Source of the DNA: Nitrospirota bacterium
GTDB taxonomy: Bacteria > Nitrospirota > Thermodesulfovibrionia > Thermodesulfovibrionales > SM23-35
Assembly: GCA_040753955.1 (NCBI GenBank)
Contig: JBFMDQ010000001.1
Coordinates: 44,668 to 108,667, forward strand
DNA length: 64,000 bases
Direction of reading: 5' to 3'
Shown here: piece by piece, positions 7,391-64,000 of the stretch
Position numbering within the stretch: position 1 is the first letter of the stretch
How the letters are laid out: every line of letters starts with the position of its first letter
The notes under the pieces: model-generated
Seen by the model: only the letters and a program-made list of their open reading frames with translations
Told to the model about the DNA's origin: nothing
Databases searched by the model: none
Translations under genes and position numbers: made by a program

Positions 7391-7965
7391 TCTGTTCCGC
7401 TTATTATCCTTTTTGCCTTAAGGAATTCCCTATTTTTTACGGACTCGAGATAGATTCTTACAAGGTTAAGGACGTTCTTGTAAAGGAGAAAGTTTGAAGA
7501 GAGTTCAAGGAATAACTCCTTTTGGCTGAATTTCGAGGCTATCTGATAAGACCTCTTGCCTTGCAACAAATAACATTCAAAAAGGCTTGCACCTGGGATG
7601 ATTATACTGCCCAAGATAAACTCCTTCCCCCTCTTTCTGGATAGGGCTTCAGGGAACATGCCGAGCATAAAAAGGGTATAGTCTCCAATGTGTTTGTGAA
7701 CCTGAAATTCCCTTGAGAAACTTGGTGCATTAAGCAGCACATCCCCTTCATAGAGCAGGTCTGCTATATCTTCGAGGGTCCTTCCTGATGCATCTTTAAT
7801 TTTACAGAGGTTATCTACATGGATAAATTCACATAAAACCTGATCTTCTATGTAGTCCACGACCTCAGTCTTCTCTGAGGGATTAAATCTGAGTCCAAAG
7901 TCCAGAGCCCTTTTGAAAAGCCTTCTGAGAGGGTGTCCTGGGTCAATATTTGTCTTTCTTAGCAT
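7387..7965 (-). CDS. hypothetical protein (no family recognised)
   Basis: 192-aa ORF of non-repetitive composition. Its TAG stop overlaps the selB TAA on the opposite strand (cTAa). Confidence 0.5.
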   Translation of the reverse strand: MLRKTNIDPGHPLRRLFKRALDFGLRFNPSEKTEVVDYIEDQVLCEFIHVDNLCKIKDASGRTLEDIADLLYEGDVLLNAPSFSREFQVHKHIGDYTLFMLGMFPEALSRKRGKEFILGSIIIPGASLFECYLLQGKRSYQIASKFSQKELFLELSSNFLLYKNVLNLVRIYLESVKNREFLKAKRIISGTD

Positions 7966-9007: not shown

Positions 9008-9059
9008 CTCCTCAATCCTGTTGCACTCACCCGAGATTTTCCCGTAATATACAGCAATC

Positions 9060-9845
9060 ATGAAGATCCAAGTTCTCAGAAACATTGGCAGAAGGCTTCT
9101 TAAGGAAATTCCAACCATGAGGCTTAGACCGTATACTCAAATGGTTATTGGTGTTGGTGCAGCAGGCGATAAGACCTTCCTTATAGATAAAAGGGCAGAA
9201 GAGATTATTATCTCTGGTCTTGATGAGTCAGGGGAAGCCTTAACACTTATCTCTGAAGAGATTGGTATAAAGAACATAAAAGGCGGAGGTAAGAAGATTC
9301 TTATAGACCCCATTGATGGTAGCAAGAATGCAATCTCGGGAATCCCTTTTTACTGTACATCCGTTGCAGTTGTAGATGGAAATACCTTTGGGGATATCGA
9401 ACTCGCATATGTTGTGAACCTCATAAACGGTGATGAGTTCTGGGCAGAGAAGGGCAAGGGCGCATTCTTAAATAGTAAGAGGATATATACACAAAGGGAC
9501 GACGAATTTTATCTTATTGCATACGAGGCGCAGTTCCCTTACAAAGACATCCTCCGGATCATGCCACTTCTTTCAAAATCAAGAAAAACCCGATGTCTCG
9601 GTGCTACCGCACTTGACCTTGCATACCTTGCCTTTGGTGCAATCAGCATCTTTGTCACCCCATCCCTTTCGAGGGGCTTTGACTTCGCAAGTGGCTATCT
9701 GCTTGTGAGGGAGGCCGGAGGGATATTTACGGATATTGAAGGTAATACCATCGAGACCTTCGAAGTCAGCCTTAAAAAAGGTTCCTCACTCCTCGCATCA
9801 GGAAATAAAAGACTCCACGAAAAGGCCTTGAGACTCCTGAGGTAA
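9060..9845 (+). CDS. inositol monophosphatase / fructose-1,6-bisphosphatase family (archaeal MJ0109-like)
   Basis: Metal-binding motifs LISEE and IDPIDGSKN, and a C-terminal GGIFTD motif. 261 aa. Confidence 0.8.
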   Translation: MKIQVLRNIGRRLLKEIPTMRLRPYTQMVIGVGAAGDKTFLIDKRAEEIIISGLDESGEALTLISEEIGIKNIKGGGKKILIDPIDGSKNAISGIPFYCTSVAVVDGNTFGDIELAYVVNLINGDEFWAEKGKGAFLNSKRIYTQRDDEFYLIAYEAQFPYKDILRIMPLLSKSRKTRCLGATALDLAYLAFGAISIFVTPSLSRGFDFASGYLLVREAGGIFTDIEGNTIETFEVSLKKGSSLLASGNKRLHEKALRLLR

Positions 9846-26319: not shown

Positions 26320-28688
26320 ACTCCTCGGGATCGAGTCGCAACGATCTTGTCATTGTTGAGTCACCTGCAAAGGCAAAGACCCTCCATAAGATACTCGGTA
26401 AGGGATTTGCAGTCAAGGCATCTATTGGTCATATAAAGGACCTTCCTGAGAAAGAGCTTGGGGTTGATGTGGAGAGTAACTTTAAGCCTCATTACGTTGT
26501 AATCCCTGGTAAAGAAAAAGTTATTAAGGAGCTTAAGAAGGCATCAAAAGAGGCTGATAAGATATTTCTTGCCCCCGACCCTGATAGGGAGGGAGAAGCA
26601 ATAGCATGGCATATTGCTTATGAAATCTCAAATATCATCCCGAAACAAGTTCGGGATCAAAATTTAAAAGGAAAGATACACAGGATTACCTTTAATGAAA
26701 TAACAGAGCGGGCTGTGCGAGAAGCAATAAAGAACCCTGGCAGGATAGATATGAACAAGGTCGAGGCCCAGCAGGCCCGGAGGATACTTGACAGGCTTGT
26801 CGGTTACGGACTCAGCCCCCTTCTATGGAAGAAGGTTAGGAAAGGCCTTAGCGCAGGGAGGGTACAGTCCGTTGCAGTAAAGCTGATTGTAGACAGAGAG
26901 CGAGAGATAAGGGCATTCAAACCCGAAGAATACTGGAGTATAAACGCAGAATTTGAAGGGTCTAAACCTCCCAGGTTCTGGGCAAGACTTTACAAGATAG
27001 ACTCCAGACTCCAGACTATAGGCTCCAGATTTTTGATACCCAATGAAAATACTGCAACGGCTATTGTTAATGACTTAAAAGACAGAGAGTTTGTACTGAG
27101 CAAAATAGAGCGCAAGCAGAGGAAGAGGATGCCTTATCCTCCCTTTATCACAAGCACTATACAGCAGGAAGCAGCAAGGAGACTGAGATTCCCGGCAAAA
27201 AAGACAATGATGATAGCACAGCAGCTCTACGAGGGAGTGGAACTTGCTGAAGAGGGTTCAGTGGGACTCATTACCTATATGAGAACAGACTCCTTCAGGG
27301 TTGCCCCTGATGCACAGGAGTGGGCGAGGGAATTCATCATGAGGGTTTATGGAAGAGATTACACACCTGAGAAACCTCCTGTTTATAAAACCAAAGGATC
27401 TGTACAGGATGCACATGAGGCGATAAGGCCGACATATCCTGAGAAAAGACCAGAGGATATAAAACAATTTCTTTCAAAAGACCAATATGCCCTTTATACG
27501 TTGATATGGAATCGGTTTATATCAAGCCAGATGGCACCAGCCCAGCTTGAACAAACGACCTTTACAATCAATACAAATCCCCCCTTACCCTCAAATAATC
27601 CCCCCACCCCCCCTTTAGTAAAGGGGGGCGAGGGGGGATTTGCCGAGTTCAGGGCATCAGGAACGGTAGTCCGTTTCGATGGCTTCATGGCCTTGTATAC
27701 AGAAGGAAGGGATGAGGCAGAAGAGGAAGAAGGACTGGCATTGCCTGCATTAAAAGAGGGGGAGACATTAACACTTCTAAATCTACAACCAAGACAGCAT
27801 TTCACACAGTCGTCACCACGTTATACGGAGGCGACACTCATTAAGGCCCTTGAGGAAAAAGGTATTGGTAGACCGAGCACCTATGCAACAATCCTCTCCA
27901 CCATCCAGGAGAGGAAATATGTCCATAAGACTGACGGCAAGTTTTCCCCCACAGAGCTTGGCATTGTTGTAAATGACTTTCTCGTTGAAAGATTCCCCGA
28001 ACTCATAGATGTGGATTTTACTGCAAAAATGGAAGATGAGCTTGACCGGATTGAAGACGGAAAGATAAGATGGGTAAAGGTTGTAAAGGATCTTTACAAC
28101 CCTTTCAGCCGTGACCTCACAGAGGCTATAAAAACTACAGGCAGGGTAAGACCAGAGGATATACCTACTGAAACCATATGCGAGGTGTGCGGCCTTCCCA
28201 TGGTCATAAGGTGGGGAAGACACGGAAGATTTCTGGCATGCTCTGGATTTCCAAAATGTAAAAATACAAAACCCATGGAAAGTCAGCAGTCAGCCGTCAG
28301 CAGTCAGCAGTCAAATGAGATATGTGATAAGTGTGGCTCACCTATGTTAATAAAGTCGGGGCGATATGGAAAATTCCTTGCCTGTTCAAGATATCCTGAG
28401 TGCAAAAATACAAGACCTCTGTCAACGGGTTTGAGATGTCCACAGGATGGAGGAGATATAGTAGAAAGGCATTCAAGAAAAGGGAAACCTTTCTGGAACT
28501 GTGGTAACTATCCAGCGTGCCAATTCGTTTTATGGAATAAACCTATACCCGGAAAATGTCTTCAGTGTGGTGCAGATTTCCTTCTTGAGAAAAGAGGTAA
28601 GGCAGGAAAGTTGATACATTTCTGCCATAATAAGAAATGCGGATACAAAGGGGAAGTAAAAGAGGAAGTGGTCGGCCATTTATTATAG
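26316..28688 (+). CDS. topA: DNA topoisomerase I
   Basis: Toprim LVIVESPAKAKT..DPDREGE, active-site Tyr region GLITYMRTDS, and four C-terminal Cys4 zinc ribbons. Carries two repeat-derived in-frame inserts (27576-27640, 28281-28315). Confidence 0.95.
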   Translation: MNSSGSSRNDLVIVESPAKAKTLHKILGKGFAVKASIGHIKDLPEKELGVDVESNFKPHYVVIPGKEKVIKELKKASKEADKIFLAPDPDREGEAIAWHIAYEISNIIPKQVRDQNLKGKIHRITFNEITERAVREAIKNPGRIDMNKVEAQQARRILDRLVGYGLSPLLWKKVRKGLSAGRVQSVAVKLIVDREREIRAFKPEEYWSINAEFEGSKPPRFWARLYKIDSRLQTIGSRFLIPNENTATAIVNDLKDREFVLSKIERKQRKRMPYPPFITSTIQQEAARRLRFPAKKTMMIAQQLYEGVELAEEGSVGLITYMRTDSFRVAPDAQEWAREFIMRVYGRDYTPEKPPVYKTKGSVQDAHEAIRPTYPEKRPEDIKQFLSKDQYALYTLIWNRFISSQMAPAQLEQTTFTINTNPPLPSNNPPTPPLVKGGEGGFAEFRASGTVVRFDGFMALYTEGRDEAEEEEGLALPALKEGETLTLLNLQPRQHFTQSSPRYTEATLIKALEEKGIGRPSTYATILSTIQERKYVHKTDGKFSPTELGIVVNDFLVERFPELIDVDFTAKMEDELDRIEDGKIRWVKVVKDLYNPFSRDLTEAIKTTGRVRPEDIPTETICEVCGLPMVIRWGRHGRFLACSGFPKCKNTKPMESQQSAVSSQQSNEICDKCGSPMLIKSGRYGKFLACSRYPECKNTRPLSTGLRCPQDGGDIVERHSRKGKPFWNCGNYPACQFVLWNKPIPGKCLQCGADFLLEKRGKAGKLIHFCHNKKCGYKGEVKEEVVGHLL
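27576..27640. repeat. C-run/G-run hairpin element inside topA (extra left arm)
   Basis: aaatccccccttaccc tcaaat aatcccccccaccccccctttagtaaaggggggcgaggggggatt. Read in frame as NPPLPSNNPPTPPLVKGGEGGF. Confidence 0.85.
28281..28315. repeat. heptamer tandem repeat inside topA (AGTCAGC x5)
   Basis: agtcagc agtcagc cgtcagc agtcagc agtcaaa. Read in frame as SQQSAVSSQQSN, between two zinc-ribbon modules. Confidence 0.85.
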
Positions 28689-29212
28689 GGATCGGTGGTG
28701 CCCATAGCAAGGTTGGAAAGACTACTGTTGCCTGCCAAATCCTTAAAAGACTTGGCGGATGGGGTGCTATAAAATACACCAAGACTTTATTCTATAGCTC
28801 TATAGTCGATAGCCCCGGGATATTGAGACAGAAAAATAAGGACACCAGCAGGCTCCTCGATGCCGGCACCCACGAAGTTCTCTGGGTTCAGTCACCGCCT
28901 GACTGCCTGAAAGAGATCCTTCAGATAGCCGTTGACAGGCTTTCACACTTGAAGGGAATCATCCTTGAAGGAAACAGTGCAATTGAGGTCCTAAGACCCG
29001 ATGCTGTAATATTTATATCTGGAAATAAGGAACTCAAGAGGAGTGCGGACGAAATCCTCAGAATAGCTGATGCTGTTATTTTCGATAAAGATCTCCCGTC
29101 AGGAACACCTGAGGGCGCTGAAAGATTTCGTAGCGATGACGTGGAAGGATATACAAATTTCATAACAGGACTTATGATTGAACGCAAAAACAAGAAAACG
29201 GCTCAAGGGTAA
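28637..29212 (+). CDS. MobB-like P-loop NTPase
   Basis: Walker A GIGGAHSKVGKTT. By eye it aligns with MobB landmarks (IKYTK vs IKHT, KDTSRLLDAG, GIILEGNS vs LILVEGFK, DDVEGYTNFI). ATG 28637 overlaps the topA end by 52 nt. The stop lies 3 nt before the RNA ligase ATG. Confidence 0.6.
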   Translation: MRIQRGSKRGSGRPFIIGIGGAHSKVGKTTVACQILKRLGGWGAIKYTKTLFYSSIVDSPGILRQKNKDTSRLLDAGTHEVLWVQSPPDCLKEILQIAVDRLSHLKGIILEGNSAIEVLRPDAVIFISGNKELKRSADEILRIADAVIFDKDLPSGTPEGAERFRSDDVEGYTNFITGLMIERKNKKTAQG

Positions 29213-29215
29213 GAG

Positions 29216-30334
29216 ATGGGAATATCTACCCCCTCCTTCATGAAGAAGTACTTTACGGATGAAGAAATAACAAAACTTCAAAAGAAGAACGCCCTGCATA
29301 CAGGTCAATTTAACGAACTCATCCTCATAAGGCTCACAAAGGACTACAAAGATTACCCGAGGGGCACTGTTTTTTATAAGGGTGGTTTCATACCGGGCTA
29401 TCCAAGGATAATGAGGGTTTTACACCTGAAGAATGGAATAAACCGCTACTTCAAAGACAGATTCTATGTTGAGGAGAAGGTGGATGGCTACAATGTCAGG
29501 ATAGCAATGATAGATGGAAATCCCTTTGCCTTTACAAGAGGGGGATTCATCTGTCCCTTCACAACAAACAGGATTCCGGACCTGATTGACCTGAATTTTT
29601 TTCATAAATATCCGGGATACATAATCAACGGGGAGGTTGTAGGCCCTGGCAGTCCATATAATACAGAGGTTATTCCTTATATCAAAGAAGATGTGGTCTT
29701 CTTCTCCTTCGACCTCTTCGACGAAGGTGGCAGAAATCTTTCTGCAGAGGAGCGTTACAGAACCCTTGAGCAATTTAAAATTCCACACGTAAGGAAATGG
29801 GGGCCCTTCAGTATATCAGATGTGGATACCGTAAGAGAAGTCGTCCTTGAACTGGACAGAGACGGAAGAGAAGGTATAGTAGCTAAACCAATCCCCGATG
29901 GAAGGCCGATCAAATATGTCACACTTTCATCATGCCTCAGGGATTTACAGGCCACGGCTAATCTTATAACAGAGCTCCCAGCAGGTTTTTATATACAGAG
30001 GATACTCAGGGCCATCTTCTTCTGTTATGAATTTGGGATTTCTTTAGATGACCACTACCTCCTTGAGTCTGCGAAGGCACTTTACCTATCACCTGAGAGG
30101 GTCTTAAAAGAGGTAGCAGACGGTGGAAACGTAAGAGAATCTTTCCAGATTAAAATTAGAAATAAAAACACCACATATGAGTTAATGGAGCATCTTAATA
30201 GATCTGGTGTTAGCACAAAACTCCTTTCTGTAGAGAAGACCGACGATTACTACAGTTCGAAATTTCACAGGATTTATACCAGGGGAACAAGGGAAATCCG
30301 CCATAGACTGATGGGGCATGGATTCTTTGACTAA
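29216..30334 (+). CDS. ATP-dependent RNA ligase, Pab1020/Rnl3 family
   Basis: Nucleotidyltransferase motif I EEKVDGYNVR (KxDG lysine), followed by FTRGGFICPFTT, INGEVVG, FFSFDLF, REGIVAKP and IKYV. The 372-aa length matches the archaeal homodimeric ligase family. Confidence 0.75.
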   Translation: MGISTPSFMKKYFTDEEITKLQKKNALHTGQFNELILIRLTKDYKDYPRGTVFYKGGFIPGYPRIMRVLHLKNGINRYFKDRFYVEEKVDGYNVRIAMIDGNPFAFTRGGFICPFTTNRIPDLIDLNFFHKYPGYIINGEVVGPGSPYNTEVIPYIKEDVVFFSFDLFDEGGRNLSAEERYRTLEQFKIPHVRKWGPFSISDVDTVREVVLELDRDGREGIVAKPIPDGRPIKYVTLSSCLRDLQATANLITELPAGFYIQRILRAIFFCYEFGISLDDHYLLESAKALYLSPERVLKEVADGGNVRESFQIKIRNKNTTYELMEHLNRSGVSTKLLSVEKTDDYYSSKFHRIYTRGTREIRHRLMGHGFFD

Positions 30335-30341
30335 AAATCAT

Positions 30342-30992
30342 CTACTTAGTCTTTCCTGAAAGCAGACCTGATCTTTTTATTGCCCCCTGTAGATAATCTT
30401 TAAATTTCTCCGGGAATAACCATTTTATACCTAACTTCTCTGCCCATTTTATTAAGCCCTGATCTGCTGTAATCAGCAGGGCATCCAATTCCATTGCAAG
30501 TAGTAGAAGGTCAACATCCTCCTTGCTGTCTATTATACCTTCCCTCAAGGCATCTCGATATTTCCGCCTCAGGTCTTGAATAATCTCATCTGGGCTTCTC
30601 TTTTCAACACTTCTTACAGCCTTTTCCGCAATTCTTAACCCCTTATTCACCCTCTCCCTTATATCCTCTATCAATTCGTATAAAAGAAAGGCCGGGCATT
30701 TTAATTCGTGTTTTTTTGGCGGCTTCTGGTGGAGTATCACAAGTAAGTCCTCGGGTATCTTATCCTTTTCAACAAAATACAGAAGCTCCTCAAAAATAGA
30801 TGGGGGCATGTAAAACTCGAGTATATGGATCTGGGCTGCTAAGAAAAGGAACGCCTCAAGGGCCTCTGTAGGCGTATCTCCGAGACTCTTCCTTACATCA
30901 GGATTTACAAATAGGCTGGTATCCAATACAACCCTGTAAGGGTAGAAGGTTCCTTCAGGCTCGCCCGAAGACAATGTTTCTTTGGCATCCAA
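30342..30992 (-). CDS. PIN-domain protein, 'RNA ligase partner' (MJ_0950-like)
   Basis: PIN acidic residues in VVLDTSLF, FEEL and DVDLLLLAMELDALLITADQGL. About 216 aa. It is convergent with the ligase gene, with stops 7 nt apart. Confidence 0.6.
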   Translation of the reverse strand: MDAKETLSSGEPEGTFYPYRVVLDTSLFVNPDVRKSLGDTPTEALEAFLFLAAQIHILEFYMPPSIFEELLYFVEKDKIPEDLLVILHQKPPKKHELKCPAFLLYELIEDIRERVNKGLRIAEKAVRSVEKRSPDEIIQDLRRKYRDALREGIIDSKEDVDLLLLAMELDALLITADQGLIKWAEKLGIKWLFPEKFKDYLQGAIKRSGLLSGKTK

Positions 30993-31221
30993 AATTTAAG
31001 GCCTCATTCTAATATCTCTGTCATCTATAGATTATCAATAAAGGGGGCTTAAAAGTAAACCCCTTTAGAAAAATTTCCTACTTTCTTTCTAACGGGCATG
31101 AATAGAAAAACGATGCTTCTCAATGACTTTTTCTGACTTCTCTGATATATTTTCAATGTTATAGTTATCCTTTCACCTTTTATGTGTTCAGACCCTTGAG
31201 GTTAAAATTCAGGAGGTCTTT

Positions 31222-31563
31222 ATGGAATGTGTATTCTGCAGGATTATAGAGAAGGAACTACCAGCAAAGATAATATATGAAGATGATCTTTCAGTCGCTT
31301 TTGAGGATGTTAACCCCCAGTGTCCTGTTCATACTATTTTGATACCTAAAAAACATATCTCCACAAACCTTGATATAAAAGAAGAAGACAACGCCCTTAT
31401 TGGCCATTTGTTCCAAGTCGCTAACAGGATTGCAAGGGATAAGGGTATAGCAGAGCGTGGCTTCAGGCTTGTGATGAACTGCAATCCCGAGTCAGGGCAA
31501 ACGATATACCATTTACACCTTCATCTTCTCGGCGGCCGCAGGATGTACTGGCCACCAGGATAG
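31222..31563 (+). CDS. HIT-family (Hint-type) nucleotide hydrolase
   Basis: [16 protein letters not shown] and the histidine triad HLHLHLLGG. 113 aa. Confidence 0.9.
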
Positions 31564-31649
31564 TGGTGCCGAAGGCGGGATTTGAACCCGCACGGGTTTC
31601 CCCACACGCCCCTCAAACGTGTGTGTCTACCAGGTTCCACCACTTCGGC
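31564..31649 (-). tRNA. tRNA-Leu (anticodon GAG), class II, CCA encoded
   Basis: Reverse complement: gccgaag..anticodon stem cacgt/gcgtg with loop ttGAGgg, long variable arm, T arm gcggg-ttcaaat-cccgc, acceptor cttcggc, then ACCA. The 3' end abuts the HIT stop codon. Confidence 0.9.
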
Positions 31650-44793: not shown

Positions 44794-47076
44794 ATGTCAA
44801 TATCTGACTTCATAGAATCCTTAAAAAAAGACAGGAGATTTAATCTCCAGGTTGCAGAACATAAATACATTCCTCCCATGAGGCCAGGATATGGGGAGCT
44901 TACTTTATTTGACAGGCTCAGAGATGTATTGAGAAGGCGAGGCATAGAGCTATTTTACAGCCACCAGGTCGAGGCTATTAATTTAATAAGGCAGGGAGAG
45001 AATGTCGTTGTTATGACCCCTACGGCAAGCGGTAAGAGCCTCATATATAACATTCCTGTGCTTGAATCCATCATCGAAAACCCTGAGTATAGGGCATTGT
45101 ATATATTCCCGTTAAAGGGACTTGAACAGGACCAGGTAAAAAACCTTAATGAGCTTTTTTATTCCGTGATGACACCCTCCCCTACTCCTCCCATTATTTA
45201 TAAACCCCCTCCCCGCTCAAAATCCCCCCTGCAATTTGCAGAAATCTACGATGGGGACACAACAGCCTACAGGAGAAAGAAGATAAGAGAGGAAATACCT
45301 AACGTTATTTTTACAAACCCTGATATGCTCCATCTTGCATTAAATCCCTTTCATAAAAAATGGGAAACCTTCTTCAAGAATTTGAGATATGTGGTTATTG
45401 ATGAGATACATACTTACAGGGGTGTATTTGGCTCAAATGTTGCCCATGTGATGAGGAGGCTGAGGAGAATATGTAAATACTGGGGTTCTAACCCCCAATT
45501 TATTGCAGCCTCTGCAACTATAGCCAATCCATCTCAACTTGCTGAAGAACTCATTGGATTACCTTTTAAGGTTGTGGCTCAAAGTGGGGCACCACAGGCA
45601 GGGAGACATTTTATATTTATTAATCCCATTGACAGCCCTTATACAGAAACGACAAGGCTTTTTATAAGATGCCTGAATGCAGGGCTCAGAACAATCGTCT
45701 TTACAAAGGCAAGAAAGATAACAGAGCTTATCTATTCATGGACAATGAACCAGGCACCTGAGCTTGAGGGCAGGATAAGCCCTTACCGCGCTGGTTTTCT
45801 TCCGAGAGAAAGGAGAGAGATAGAACAGAGATTATTCAGTGGAGAGCTCTTAGGTGTTGTATCAACAAGCGCACTTGAGCTCGGAATTGATATAGGAGGG
45901 CTTGACTGCTGTATACTCTGCGGTTATCCAGGCTCTGTGGCAAGCACCTGGCAAAGGGCAGGTCGTGTTGGAAGAGGTGGACAGGAATCAATGATTGTGA
46001 TGATTGCTATTCAGGATGCCCTTGACCAGTATTTCATGCGTCATCCTGAGGCATTCTTTGAAAAAAGTCATGAGGCAGCAGTCATAGACCCTGAAAATAG
46101 AAATATCCTTAAAAGACATATTCCATGTGCCTCTTCAGAGGTTTACCTGAGAGAATACGACGAGACATATGATGTAAAAAAGCTTATGCCTTTGATTGAT
46201 GAGCTTGTTAAAGAAGGGATTTTAAATCCTGGCAGGAAAGGAGACATATGGTTCTCCAGAAGAAGAATGCCCCACAGGGAGGTTGGTATCAGGGCGATCG
46301 GTGAGCCATTTGATATTATTGATGAATCAGGGAAGGCAATTGGGGAGCTAAGTGGTATAAGGGTTTTCAGGGATGCCTTTCCTGGGGCTATCTATCTCCA
46401 CAGGGGAAGGCAGTATCATGTTACAGAGCTTGATTTAGAAAGGAAAAGGGTGATATGCAGTGAGGTTGACGTAAATTATTACACCCAGGCATTGAGCAAA
46501 GAAGAGACAGAAGTAATAAAAGAGAAGGAGATGAAGAATTACAGGGGCCTTTCAGTTCGCTGGGGAACCCTTAAAACAACCCAGAAGATAACAGGCTATG
46601 AGAAAAAGAGGATCTTTGACAGGGTCAGGATTTCAAGACATGGCCTCGATATGCCTGATTGCATATTCGAGACAGAAGGACTCTGGATCAAAATAGATAA
46701 GACAATAAAATCTTTTGTCGAATCAAAAGGTTTTGATCTTGCAGGGACCCTCCATGCTGTTGAGCATACTGTAATAGCATGTATACCACTATTTGCCCTC
46801 TGTGACAGAGGAGACATTGGCGGATTGAGTTATACCTTTTATCCTGAATTTAAACAACCTGCAATATTCATTTATGATGGATACGAAGGTGGGATAGGGC
46901 TAACAAAGAGGGCGACTGAGGTTATCGGGGATTTGCTGATGGCAACCCTGAAGGTCATTGATGAATGTCCTTGCGAAGAAGGTTGCCCTTCCTGTGTGCA
47001 GGACCCACAGTGTGGTTCAGGCAACCAGCCACTGGATAAAGAAGGGGCAAAAAATCTACTTAAAAGATGGCTCTAA
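44794..47076 (+). CDS. DEAD/DEAH-box helicase with C-terminal DUF1998/MrfA Zn-binding domain (YprA/MrfA-like)
   Basis: Motif I TPTASGKS, motif II VIDEIH, motif VI QRAGRVGRG, and a C-terminal CPCEEGCPSCVQDPQCGSGN cysteine cluster. Contains a C-rich insert at 45171-45232. Confidence 0.85.
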   Translation: MSISDFIESLKKDRRFNLQVAEHKYIPPMRPGYGELTLFDRLRDVLRRRGIELFYSHQVEAINLIRQGENVVVMTPTASGKSLIYNIPVLESIIENPEYRALYIFPLKGLEQDQVKNLNELFYSVMTPSPTPPIIYKPPPRSKSPLQFAEIYDGDTTAYRRKKIREEIPNVIFTNPDMLHLALNPFHKKWETFFKNLRYVVIDEIHTYRGVFGSNVAHVMRRLRRICKYWGSNPQFIAASATIANPSQLAEELIGLPFKVVAQSGAPQAGRHFIFINPIDSPYTETTRLFIRCLNAGLRTIVFTKARKITELIYSWTMNQAPELEGRISPYRAGFLPRERREIEQRLFSGELLGVVSTSALELGIDIGGLDCCILCGYPGSVASTWQRAGRVGRGGQESMIVMIAIQDALDQYFMRHPEAFFEKSHEAAVIDPENRNILKRHIPCASSEVYLREYDETYDVKKLMPLIDELVKEGILNPGRKGDIWFSRRRMPHREVGIRAIGEPFDIIDESGKAIGELSGIRVFRDAFPGAIYLHRGRQYHVTELDLERKRVICSEVDVNYYTQALSKEETEVIKEKEMKNYRGLSVRWGTLKTTQKITGYEKKRIFDRVRISRHGLDMPDCIFETEGLWIKIDKTIKSFVESKGFDLAGTLHAVEHTVIACIPLFALCDRGDIGGLSYTFYPEFKQPAIFIYDGYEGGIGLTKRATEVIGDLLMATLKVIDECPCEEGCPSCVQDPQCGSGNQPLDKEGAKNLLKRWL
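45171..45232. repeat. C-rich (C-arm-like) repeat segment inside the helicase gene
   Basis: gacaccctcccctactcctcccattatttataaaccccctccccgctcaaaatcccccctgc. Read as TPSPTPPIIYKPPPRSKSPLQ, between helicase motifs Ia and Ib. No G-rich partner arm. Confidence 0.55.
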
Positions 47077-62570: not shown

Positions 62571-62660
62571 AACAAATTATACCAAAATGGAAGCATCTCT
62601 TTTTTCGTGACGAAAGTTAACGATATTTGTAATCTATTTGTAATCTATTAGTATAGAGGT

Positions 62661-62802
62661 AGGATATAGTATCTTCGCTCATTCTCGTCCCTCGATAAAC
62701 TCAGGACTCCGAGGCTTTTGCCTCTTTATTATTTAAAAATAGGCTTAAGGGTCCTGAATCAAGTTCAGGATCGGCAAAAGAAACCGCTCAGATATATATC
62801 CT
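62661..62802. mobile_element. 142-bp MITE (AGGATA..TATCCT TIR family), copy B
   Basis: Near-identical to 53764-53911, except for one internal hairpin (gcaccatgatatggtgc in copy A, tcgataaactcag in copy B) and the terminal 10-12 nt. Confidence 0.8.
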
Positions 62803-62923
62803 GCCATCACGGATTTGGAGATGCTTACTACCAAAACTTCATACTTGCATTTTGCCTTTGGATATGCTAAAGTCATCCCGATAATAATCCCGACAATAAA
62901 GGTCTAAAACAATAAAAAATTCC

Positions 62924-64000
62924 ATGGGGGTTATGATGGATAACAGAAGGATAGCTCTAATATTTCTGGTTATTGTTTTCATGATCATCCCTGTACATGC
63001 CAATGCTACAAAAGGCACTCTTTCAGATGAGGCCAAGATGTGTCTGGGTTGCCACTCAACTAAGGAAATGACCAGGGCTTTAGAAAGCAAAGAGATTTTA
63101 TCTTTATATATTGATGGCAAGGAGTTTTCGGATTCTATCCATAATATGTTTAGCTGCTCGGGCTGTCATCCAGATATCTCAATGGAAAAACACCCCCTGG
63201 TAAAGAAAATCAGCAGCAAAAAGGAATATTCAAAGAACGCCTCAAAAGTATGCAAGAACTGTCATCCCGATCAAGTGCTCAAGAAAAAACCCATGCATGG
63301 AAGTGTAGTAGCCCAGCCAAAGGCACCTGCGTGTGCCGAATGCCACGGCTCACACGATATAAAACGGATAGCAGAGTTGAAGGCCCCTCTAACTGAAAGC
63401 CAGTATTGCCTCATCTGCCATAAATATGACTTCAGTATACCACTGAAGAGTGGTGAATTTTTATCCCTTTATGCAGATGAGTCAGTTATTAGAAGATCTA
63501 TACACACTAAGCTTCAATGTGGTGCCTGTCATGCAGGTTTTTCAAAAGTCGAACACCCCATAAGGGTTTTTAAAAGCAAGCGCGACCATTCAATTACTGC
63601 TACAGAAGGGTGCGGAAAGTGTCATCCTGATGCACAAGAACAATACAAAGGCAGCATACACCATATCGTCTTGAGGGAAAACAATCTCAAGGCATCTGTA
63701 TGCATAGATTGCCATGGCTCCCACTCAGCAGTAAAGGTAGATAGGAATTTAGGTTTAATATCTTGCGATAAATGCCATGGGGATGTAAATGCCGCATACA
63801 AATTGAGCGTTCATAACACTGCAAGGATTAAAGGGAAAGAGGATGCTCCGATCTGTTCTACCTGCCATAAGTCACATGATATTGAAGTGACGGCAATGAC
63901 AATGAAGATGAAGGATAAGTGCCTGGAGTGTCACAAAGATGCTGAAAAGGCTCATAAAAAGTGGCTCTCCAATCCTCCTTTTAAGCTCTCCTCCTTTGCA
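62924..64000 (+). CDS. multiheme c-type cytochrome (at least 11 CXXCH), 3' end outside window
   Basis: My own translation; the ORF track misses it because it has no stop in the window. MGVMMDNRRIALIFLVIVFMIIPVHA signal peptide, then CLGCH, CSGCH, CKNCH, CAECH, CLICH, CGACH, CGKCH, CIDCH, CDKCH, CSTCH and CLECH. The frame is open to base 64000. Confidence 0.85.
   Translation, partial: MGVMMDNRRIALIFLVIVFMIIPVHANATKGTLSDEAKMCLGCHSTKEMTRALESKEILSLYIDGKEFSDSIHNMFSCSGCHPDISMEKHPLVKKISSKKEYSKNASKVCKNCHPDQVLKKKPMHGSVVAQPKAPACAECHGSHDIKRIAELKAPLTESQYCLICHKYDFSIPLKSGEFLSLYADESVIRRSIHTKLQCGACHAGFSKVEHPIRVFKSKRDHSITATEGCGKCHPDAQEQYKGSIHHIVLRENNLKASVCIDCHGSHSAVKVDRNLGLISCDKCHGDVNAAYKLSVHNTARIKGKEDAPICSTCHKSHDIEVTAMTMKMKDKCLECHKDAEKAHKKWLSNPPFKLSSFA

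Follow-up and report, generated by a model that had tools for sequence, protein, structure and literature searches.

A convergent HARP-Rnl3 gene pair in a Nitrospirota genome and the uneven conservation of its two members within Thermodesulfovibrionia

The DNA analysed here, called the window below, is a stretch of 64,000 nucleotides from a Nitrospirota bacterium of the class Thermodesulfovibrionia (assembly GCA_040753955.1, contig JBFMDQ010000001.1, positions 44,668 to 108,667). Its central subject is a pair of convergent genes. The first (29216-30334, plus strand) encodes a 372-aa protein that we assign to the Pab1020 family of ATP-dependent RNA ligases, or Rnl3, and the second (30342-30992, minus strand) a 216-aa protein that profiles and structure matches place in the HARP family, a PIN_5 family of RNA-free RNase P. 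The two stop codons are separated by a spacer of 7 nt (30335-30341, AAATCAT). The ligase gene is preceded by an open reading frame (ORF) for a 191-aa P-loop NTPase (28637-29212, plus strand, taken from the ORF list), and the ligase ATG starts 3 nt past the stop of that ORF. On the other side, a divergent intergenic region of 229 nt (30993-31221) lies between HARP and a gene for a 113-aa Hint-type HIT hydrolase (31222-31563, plus strand). An earlier note on this DNA had described the four ORFs with their 3-nt and 7-nt spacings and the divergent HIT gene, all of which agrees with the ORF list, and had proposed that they form a candidate module in which RNA is cut by the PIN protein and resealed by the ligase. 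Is there such a module, and what might the pair do in its host? The pair turns out to be a published one, and comparison with relatives indicates that its two members have been conserved very unevenly.

What is the 216-aa protein? HARPs, the homologs of Aquifex RNase P, are protein-only RNase P enzymes of bacteria and archaea and were first found as Aq_880. The window protein, which carries the NCBI label 'RNA ligase partner protein', matches the profile TIGR03875, 'RNA ligase partner', with 205.9 bits (cut-off 95.3) and PF08745, PIN_5, with 203.8 bits (cut-off 27), and its residues 20-204 span profile positions 1-203 of 205. It also matches seven distinct PDB sequences, every one of which is titled 'RNA-free ribonuclease P'. 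The top match is PbHARP (7E8K/7E8O; E=5e-66, 225 bits, ungapped over residues 20-205), followed in order by TcHARP (7E8J), Aq880 (8KD9/7F3E) and the H. halophila protein (7OG5). When it is aligned to 8kd9/7f3e and 7e8k, D24, D155, D159 and D177 fall on D7, D138, D142 and D160 of Aq880, which are essential in that enzyme (PMC8405995), while T25, S26, S156 and E158 are conserved equivalents of Aq880 T8, S9, S139 and E141. The acidic residues also map to D151, D155 and D173 of PbHARP. In the inserted helical domain, R120, R127, R142 and R146 align without gaps to R116, R123, R138 and R142 of PbHARP, the arginines that hold the tRNA elbow in the crystal structure with pre-tRNA and whose mutation abolishes or strongly reduces cleavage (PMC9051087). 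Like Aq880, PbHARP and TcHARP, the window protein thus keeps the essential aspartates, the four elbow arginines and the C-terminal helix region; it differs from Aq880 in a 19-residue N-terminal extension. The acidic PIN tetrad, on which the PIN assignment had been made to depend, is therefore intact, as judged against solved structures rather than a model. Judged by its sequence, then, the 'PIN ligase partner' is a HARP. The statement that the partner has no known function in any organism does not hold for this family, since structures have been solved (7E8K, 7E8O, 7F3E, 7OG5) and 5'-cleavage of pre-tRNA has been demonstrated in vitro (PMC9051087, PMC8405995). Two HARP cluster representatives that are 85-87% identical to the window protein, P0182 (350 aa) and P0197 (337 aa), carry an extra CBS domain (PF00571), either as a real fusion or through merged gene calls.

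The identity of the ligase is equally clear at the level of family. It matches TIGR01209 with 321 bits (cut-off 136.9), PF09414 with 73 bits and, with 57 bits, PF18330 (Lig_C), the C-terminal dimerisation region of Pab1020. Pab1020 of Pyrococcus abyssi itself (2VUG) is matched over residues 9-372 (E=2e-72, 247 bits), and the other structure matches are the 8UCE family, 3QWU and MthRnl 5D1O. The KxDG motif noticed earlier, within EEKVDGYNVR, supplies the motif I lysine K88 (KVDGYN), and motifs III, IIIa, IV and V were located downstream of it (INGEVVG at 137, FFSFDLF at 162, EGIVAK at 219 and IKYVT at 232), where they align with identical or similar residues of Pab1020. The full-length match, the nucleotidyltransferase motifs and the C-terminal dimerisation domain all point to a full-length Pab1020/Rnl3 enzyme. 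By analogy, it would adenylylate itself at K88 and circularise RNA with a 5'-phosphate and a 3'-hydroxyl; ATP-dependent circularisation of such single-stranded RNA, with specificity for RNA over DNA, is attributed to characterised family members in the account given in PMC12153264. The two profile searches that had been suggested, for a Pab1020 ligase and for an MJ_0950-type partner, thus both gave unambiguous matches. Where the window ligase does differ from Pab1020 is in its host: the archaeal enzymes have their best documented substrates in vivo in C/D-box small RNAs (sRNAs), which this bacterium lacks. To our knowledge bacteria have neither C/D-box sRNAs nor the ribonucleoproteins built on them, so the archaeal substrate model is not applicable to bacterial Rnl3.

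Is the combination of the two genes new? Seshadri and Gopalan (mBio 2025, PMC12153264) mined more than 1 million genomes and found 751 that are HARP-positive. The ligase is present in 89% of these as well, and every ligase-positive genome is HARP-positive. Among 164 bacterial cases, 127 show co-localisation, in an arrangement called 'typically bidirectional', and Table S1 of that paper has 132 rows marked 'Convergent', with Dissulfurispira thermophila of the Thermodesulfovibrionia among the convergent cases. The window pair belongs to the same families (PF08745/TIGR03875 and TIGR01209/PF18330), has the same convergent abutting layout and occurs in the same class. It differs in nothing essential, although its placement behind topA and the P-loop gene is not described in PMC12153264. 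A toxin-antitoxin role, circularisation by the ligase of ends made by HARP, and 5'-adenylylation by the ligase are all discussed in that paper already, so a cut-and-reseal module cannot be called novel. The gene pair, the identity of the partner and the coupling models are known, and the window is a clean but ordinary example.

The relatives were then sampled in two ways. An alignment of 19 homologs of the P-loop protein was used to retrieve 80 species-level genome loci, in each of which argG, dprA, topA, the P-loop gene, Rnl3, HARP and HIT were placed by tblastn, and eight HARP homologs on long contigs were taken from outside the topA/P-loop site (L084-L091). The pair, counted where the two genes are less than 5 kb apart on opposite strands, recurs in nine loci (L001, L004, L006, L008, L012, L023, L031, L085 and L086). 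Together with the published convergent rows this confirms that ligase and partner are syntenic in other bacteria. In seven of the nine the stop-to-stop gap is between -4 and +11 nt, and this range covers three genomic contexts (-4 nt in L085 and +11 nt in L086 outside the topA/P-loop site). A terminator scan gave no terminator-like site at the window junction. A gap of 7 nt is too short to hold a terminator, so that transcription from either side would continue into the opposite gene, and the 3' ends of the ligase and HARP transcripts probably overlap. The idea of a conserved non-coding element in the junction was rejected, because the spacer is only -4 to +11 nt in most loci and an insertion is found only in L001 and L006. 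In these two, 155-195 nt of palindromic sequence stand between the stops (L001 7712-7906, L006 9737-9891), with long inverted arms (AGGGAGGATATAGTTTTTGAGCG ... CGCTCAAAATACTATATCCTTCC); the insertion resembles a palindromic element of the miniature inverted-repeat transposable element (MITE) or repetitive extragenic palindromic (REP) kind, or a bidirectional terminator.

How has the pair evolved within the class? On a neighbour-joining tree of topA and argG from 59 loci, all HARP-bearing topA/P-loop loci form one clade, which points to a single arrival at this site. Elsewhere the picture is different: in seven of the eight outside homologs (L084, L085, L087-L091) HARP ends a nadD-rsfS-lapB-like operon, and L086 represents a third genomic context. 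A convergent ligase stands beside HARP in L085 and L086 and is absent from the other six, which means that an adjacent ligase is missing from six of the seven nadD-rsfS-lapB-like operons. L085 comes from the same metagenome-assembled genome (MAG) as L071, whose topA/P-loop locus is empty. Within the window's clade the ligase has also disappeared from the cassette. In L009, L010 and L011 it is cleanly gone and 30-60 nt separate the P-loop gene from the HARP stop, while remnants are found in L005 (residues 4-53) and L007 (residues 4-86). These ligase-less loci interleave with intact-pair lineages on the topA and argG tree, which places loss or truncation on at least three branches. In at least three such lineages HARP is intact, at 86-91% identity. 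Similarly, all cultured Thermodesulfovibrio have HARP and no ligase according to the table of PMC12153264. One side observation concerns L010 and L011, which are contigs 30934 and 30933 of a single MAG, MFD00709.bin.1.4, with two dprA-topA-P-loop-HARP copies of slightly different sequence; this doubling more probably reflects a mixture of strains in the bin than a duplication.

Selection tells the same story. Against relatives, HARP has a nonsynonymous divergence (dN) of 0.06-0.14 and a ratio to synonymous divergence (dN/dS) of 0.03-0.08, below argG, dprA and topA and the lowest in the block, and the best 120 HARP cluster representatives all share 81-100% identity with the window protein. The intact ligase has a dN of 0.11-0.38 and a dN/dS of 0.09-0.19, and dN values of argG, topA and Rnl3 together range over 0.09-0.38. 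Thus HARP is under very strong purifying selection and behaves like a core housekeeping gene in Thermodesulfovibrionia, whereas the ligase behaves like an optional accessory that is repeatedly discarded. Because the ligase has been lost repeatedly and HARP has remained unaffected, HARP needs no ligase, and the ligase is no antidote to HARP. The same pattern argues against an obligatory cycle of cutting and resealing, since HARP stays constrained even in lineages that have deleted or truncated their ligase; an accessory role of the ligase would agree with it. In all three genomic contexts the ligase dN is about 2-2.7 times that of HARP, and this co-divergence fits long co-residence rather than recent import. 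The suggestion of horizontal acquisition, if the recent past is meant, finds no support either: GC content is flat across the locus (the source, an uncultured Thermodesulfovibrionales MAG, has about 44% GC), the neighbours are housekeeping genes, no integrase or transposase was found among the scanned ORFs near the pair, and the divergences of ligase and HARP scale together. A recently transferred segment or mobile island was rejected on these grounds.

Could the two genes still be a toxin and its antidote, or a device for reversible RNA damage? HARP would then be a VapC-like toxin that attacks tRNA or other RNA, and Rnl3 would reseal the breaks. HARP does fall into the VapC-like structural group of PIN proteins, a fifth of PIN proteins are toxins of toxin-antitoxin systems (PMC12153264, PMC6380272), and the two genes are adjacent, so that, as in VapBC, a PIN metallonuclease of this group stands beside a second gene. 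However, where VapBC has a small upstream antitoxin, the window has a 372-aa enzyme encoded on the other strand, and convergent genes are not a co-directional autoregulated operon. HARP also persists without the partner, under constraint of a housekeeping level that exceeds that of argG and topA, and usually in a nadD-rsfS operon. A lineage that loses its antidote should die or come under selection to lose the toxin as well, and the idea is therefore largely refuted by the ligase-less lineages and the cultured Thermodesulfovibrio. HARP complements the loss of RNase P in E. coli and yeast, with no killing (PMC12153264), and no PADLOC model matched HARP or the ligase. We consider a toxin-antidote function of the pair highly improbable. 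A defence system in general was rejected too: of the four proteins, PADLOC matched only the HIT protein, and that with a generic HIT model.

A milder form of coupling is a pathway in which HARP cuts a precursor RNA (a transcript linked to tRNA, or some other structured RNA) to give a 5'-phosphate, the 3' end is trimmed, and Rnl3 circularises or re-joins the product, as a counterpart of the archaeal C/D-box route. The chemistry would allow it, for metal-dependent PIN nucleases and Rnl3 have compatible ends, namely a 5'-phosphate and a 3'-hydroxyl. The published distribution agrees, with all ligase-positive genomes HARP-positive and 80% of bacterial pairs co-localised. So does the convergent junction kept within -4 to +11 nt in three contexts, as well as the purifying selection on the ligase where it is present. 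In L085 a tRNA-Leu(CAG) gene (9010-9093) even precedes the ligase on its own strand, at a distance of about 160 nt. On the other hand, the sole concrete substrate that has been proposed, C/D-box sRNA, is not applicable in bacteria, and no candidate substrate RNA is conserved beside the pair. Repeated loss of the ligase with retention of HARP would leave an accessory branch at most. In T. kodakarensis a knockout of the ligase is related in PMC12153264 as having no growth defect. A dedicated pathway of this kind is, in our estimate, unlikely.

The explanation that we prefer, and regard as probable, is the plain one: the locus holds the published HARP-Rnl3 pair, with HARP as a housekeeping enzyme, the ligase as an optional companion, the P-loop and HIT genes as unrelated neighbours, and a single relocation of the pair. 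By homology to Aq880, PbHARP and TcHARP, HARP would dimerise through its inserted helical domain, and the dimers would combine into oligomers as large as dodecamers. In these, one dimer would grip the tRNA elbow via the conserved arginines, and the site of a neighbouring dimer (D24, D155, D159 and D177 with Mg2+) would hydrolyse the bond 5' of tRNA nucleotide +1, leaving a 5'-phosphate on the tRNA and a 3'-hydroxyl on the leader. Rnl3, as a homodimer, would be adenylylated at K88 and pass the AMP to the 5'-phosphate of an RNA, whose own 3'-hydroxyl would attack to give a circular single-stranded RNA. Both genes would have shifted together to the place after topA and the P-loop gene, in one event at the root of the clade to which the window belongs. 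HARP and Rnl3 might still cooperate within this frame, for example if Rnl3 acted on 5'-phosphate RNAs that come from HARP.

There are several points that speak against this explanation and should be weighed together. First, cross-phylum co-occurrence and the very tight convergent junction suggest some functional tie between the two genes, which the explanation leaves unspecified. Second, the ligase is called lost where it is lost from the cassette, and a copy may lie elsewhere in those MAGs. Third, four other sequence-conserved bacterial HARPs formed oligomers but left pre-tRNA unprocessed in the assays applied (PMC9945441), so that activity of the window HARP is not to be assumed. Fourth, there is the question of a coexisting enzyme, as neither rnpA nor rnpB lies in the 64-kb window or in the sampled loci. 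Fifth, the 3'-CCA is encoded in 13 of 15 sampled tRNA genes of Thermodesulfovibrionia, including both tRNAs of the window. One HARP cleaves substrates that contain CCA about 10-fold more slowly (PMC12153264), and for this reason encoded CCA argues for a coexisting ribonucleoprotein RNase P. In Hydrogenobacter, which relies on HARP only, encoded CCA has been reported for roughly one-fifth, unlike the 13 of 15 here.

There is thus a further question of concern, whether HARP is the main or only RNase P of the source organism. It may be, as a few Nitrospirae genera encode HARP without RnpA (Daniels et al. 2019, PMC6380272), and an enzyme so extremely conserved and placed in a housekeeping operon would fit such a state. 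An adenine at position -1, A(-1), is found in 8 of 15 unique tRNA genes from the window and the loci, a small sample in which several genes are orthologous. For reference, the count is 38 of 44 in the HARP-only A. aeolicus and 15 of 49 in T. indicus (PMC12439589). A search with Rfam models brought up two tRNAs and nothing else in the window, and in nine loci likewise nothing but tRNAs. Two sets of rnpB and rnpA candidates were dropped: matches to CR-I/CR-V regular expressions proved to be due to chance, and the ORFs with sizes like those of yidC, mnmE and jag are groEL, PBP1, phosphoglucomutase and atpB/E. A bolder proposal goes one step further. HARP would serve this lineage, as it serves the Aquificaceae, as its main or sole RNase P, and Rnl3 would circularise or repair RNAs of the tRNA pathway, with the tail-to-tail cassette allowing cross-regulation through the 3' ends. 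We hold this to be quite unlikely, at roughly one chance in eight; if true, it would mean a bacterial route of RNA circularisation or repair in organisms without C/D-box sRNAs.

Then what of the P-loop gene, whose stop lies 3 nt before the ligase? The protein has no Pfam or NCBIfam match at E<=0.01. Against Pfam MobB (PF03205) it scores E=0.1 and 12.9 bits, below the cut-off of 26.6, and a precomputed PF03205 match is present in 3 of the 120 homologs listed. An AlphaFold (AF2) model with a mean confidence (pLDDT) of 89 was compared by Foldseek with known structures. It matches SIMIBI-class NTPases, with MeaB, HypB, SRP GTPases (SRP54/FtsY) and LpxK above MobB, of which 1np6 (21% identity) and 4nkr match as well with probability 1.00. 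The likeness to MobB (PF03205; 1NP6, 4NKR) therefore consists of a SIMIBI-class P-loop fold with a Walker A motif; the description as MobB-like holds for the fold class only, as the score stays below the Pfam cut-off and other SIMIBI families rank higher. The family is about 180 aa long and has the motifs GIGGAHSxxGKT (Walker A), WGAIKYTK, KDTxRLLDAGA and hhhhEGNSA, of which KDT...AGA and hhhhEGN presumably resemble GKDS...AGA and hhhhEGFK of MobB. Its more than 600 homologs are all of Nitrospirota type. It is confined to Thermodesulfovibrionia, and it goes with topA rather than with molybdenum-cofactor genes: it stands almost always just after argG-dprA-topA, often overlapping the topA stop, which in the window it does by 52 nt. 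The order argG-dprA-topA precedes it in about 70 of the 80 loci. HARP and/or the ligase are present as well in just a dozen, and 57 loci with at least 2.5 kb sequenced downstream have neither. Since it follows argG-dprA-topA with or without the ligase and HARP, the P-loop gene is a class-specific neighbour of topA and not a member of a module, and the ligase was inserted directly behind it. The caution that the MobB linkage may be coincidental was well placed. A polynucleotide kinase was rejected as the identity of the protein, given the SIMIBI fold, the synteny with topA and the absence of any RNA-end kinase among the Foldseek matches.

The HIT gene is a neighbour of a similar sort. The protein is a single domain of 113 aa with the motif HxHxHxx in the form HLHLHLL. 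It matches PF01230 with 90 bits and the purine nucleoside phosphoramidase model NF007965 with 122 bits, below the cut-off of 206, and HinT-type models are the closest, in keeping with its description as Hint-type and divergent from HARP. Among pair-bearing loci, it adjoins HARP only in the window and in L004, a Thermodesulfovibrionales MAG that is a 95% relative. It is thus an incidental neighbour and not a module member, as had been allowed. Its presence has some bearing on another published idea, in which Rnl3 under stress mainly 5'-adenylylates pre-tRNA leaders as a protective cap and HARP later removes the capped leaders; the HIT protein might remove the AMP. The idea comes from Palaeococcus pacificus Rnl3, which adenylylates its substrate strongly and ligates weakly (PMC12153264); the window ligase matches structures of the 8uce family, and in the window the HIT gene is adjacent. 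But this adjacency goes no further than the 95% relative, the ligase is dispensable, and direct evidence has come from no organism. The HIT protein is plain Hint-type without aprataxin features and without conserved synteny, and an aprataxin-like role in removing 5'-AMP finds no support. Such a cycle is very unlikely. As to the surroundings of the HIT gene, a tRNA-Leu(GAG) gene (31564-31649, minus strand) abuts its stop in the window, and a tRNA-Leu gene (7657-7743) directly follows HARP in L084, where the ligase is missing. With the tRNA-Leu(CAG) gene of L085, this recurrence beside the cassette may be a coincidence or the mark of an ancestral cassette boundary.

With these two neighbours characterised, one can judge the idea that all four genes form a module, with the HIT protein and the P-loop protein (perhaps an RNA-end kinase or NTPase) acting together with ligase and nuclease. 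The 3-nt gap between the P-loop stop and the ligase ATG hints at co-transcription, and the ligase adjoins the P-loop gene in all pair-bearing loci of the window's clade. However, the P-loop gene keeps its place behind topA in the many species clearly without ligase or HARP downstream, the pairs in the lapB-like and third contexts (L085, L086) have no P-loop gene, the fold belongs with MeaB, HypB, SRP and MobB rather than with polynucleotide kinases, and HIT is unlinked. The module is already refuted by synteny, and we give it practically no probability.

The wider neighbourhood is of an ordinary kind. Upstream of the P-loop gene lie relA/spoT, pilin genes, feoB, argG, dprA and topA, and downstream of HIT surA-N-like, nudix, hfq, miaA, ccsA, hemA and hemC genes. 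In the intergenic region between HARP and HIT, a consensus scan gave candidate promoter hexamers for HARP (31059-31011, minus strand) and for HIT (31123-31151, plus strand), which are suggestive only, as site counts are not above shuffled expectation; a GC hairpin lies at 31044-31063. Inside topA there is a 36-nt GC-rich near-perfect palindrome, CCCCTCGCCCCCCTTTACTAAAGGGGGGGTGGGGGG (27600-27635), with a 16-bp stem that includes 11 GC pairs; it falls in a Pro/Gly-rich insert, PPTPPLVKGGEGGF, and gave a minus-strand match in the terminator scan. Further along, 44794-47076 encodes a 760-aa DEAD/Helicase_C protein with an MrfA Zn-binding domain (MZB) and an HRQ1 winged helix, that is, an MrfA-like repair helicase, which is unrelated to the HARP-ligase pair. 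At the right end of the window, about 1.4 kb (62600-64000) has no ORF of at least 100 aa, no Rfam match and no direct repeats, and two weak inverted repeats are the sole features detected there.

What does the finding mean? As a discovery it has little weight, for the pair, the biochemistry of the partner and the coupling models are already in the literature. The P-loop gene and HIT have been removed from the supposed module as false members. What is new is comparative. Within one class, HARP is housekeeping-like and the ligase has been discarded repeatedly, and this narrows the published hypotheses by arguing against a toxin-antitoxin system and against any obligatory cycle of HARP and ligase. 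Thermodesulfovibrionia thus offer a natural series of ligase-plus and ligase-minus lineages in which to ask what bacterial Rnl3 does.

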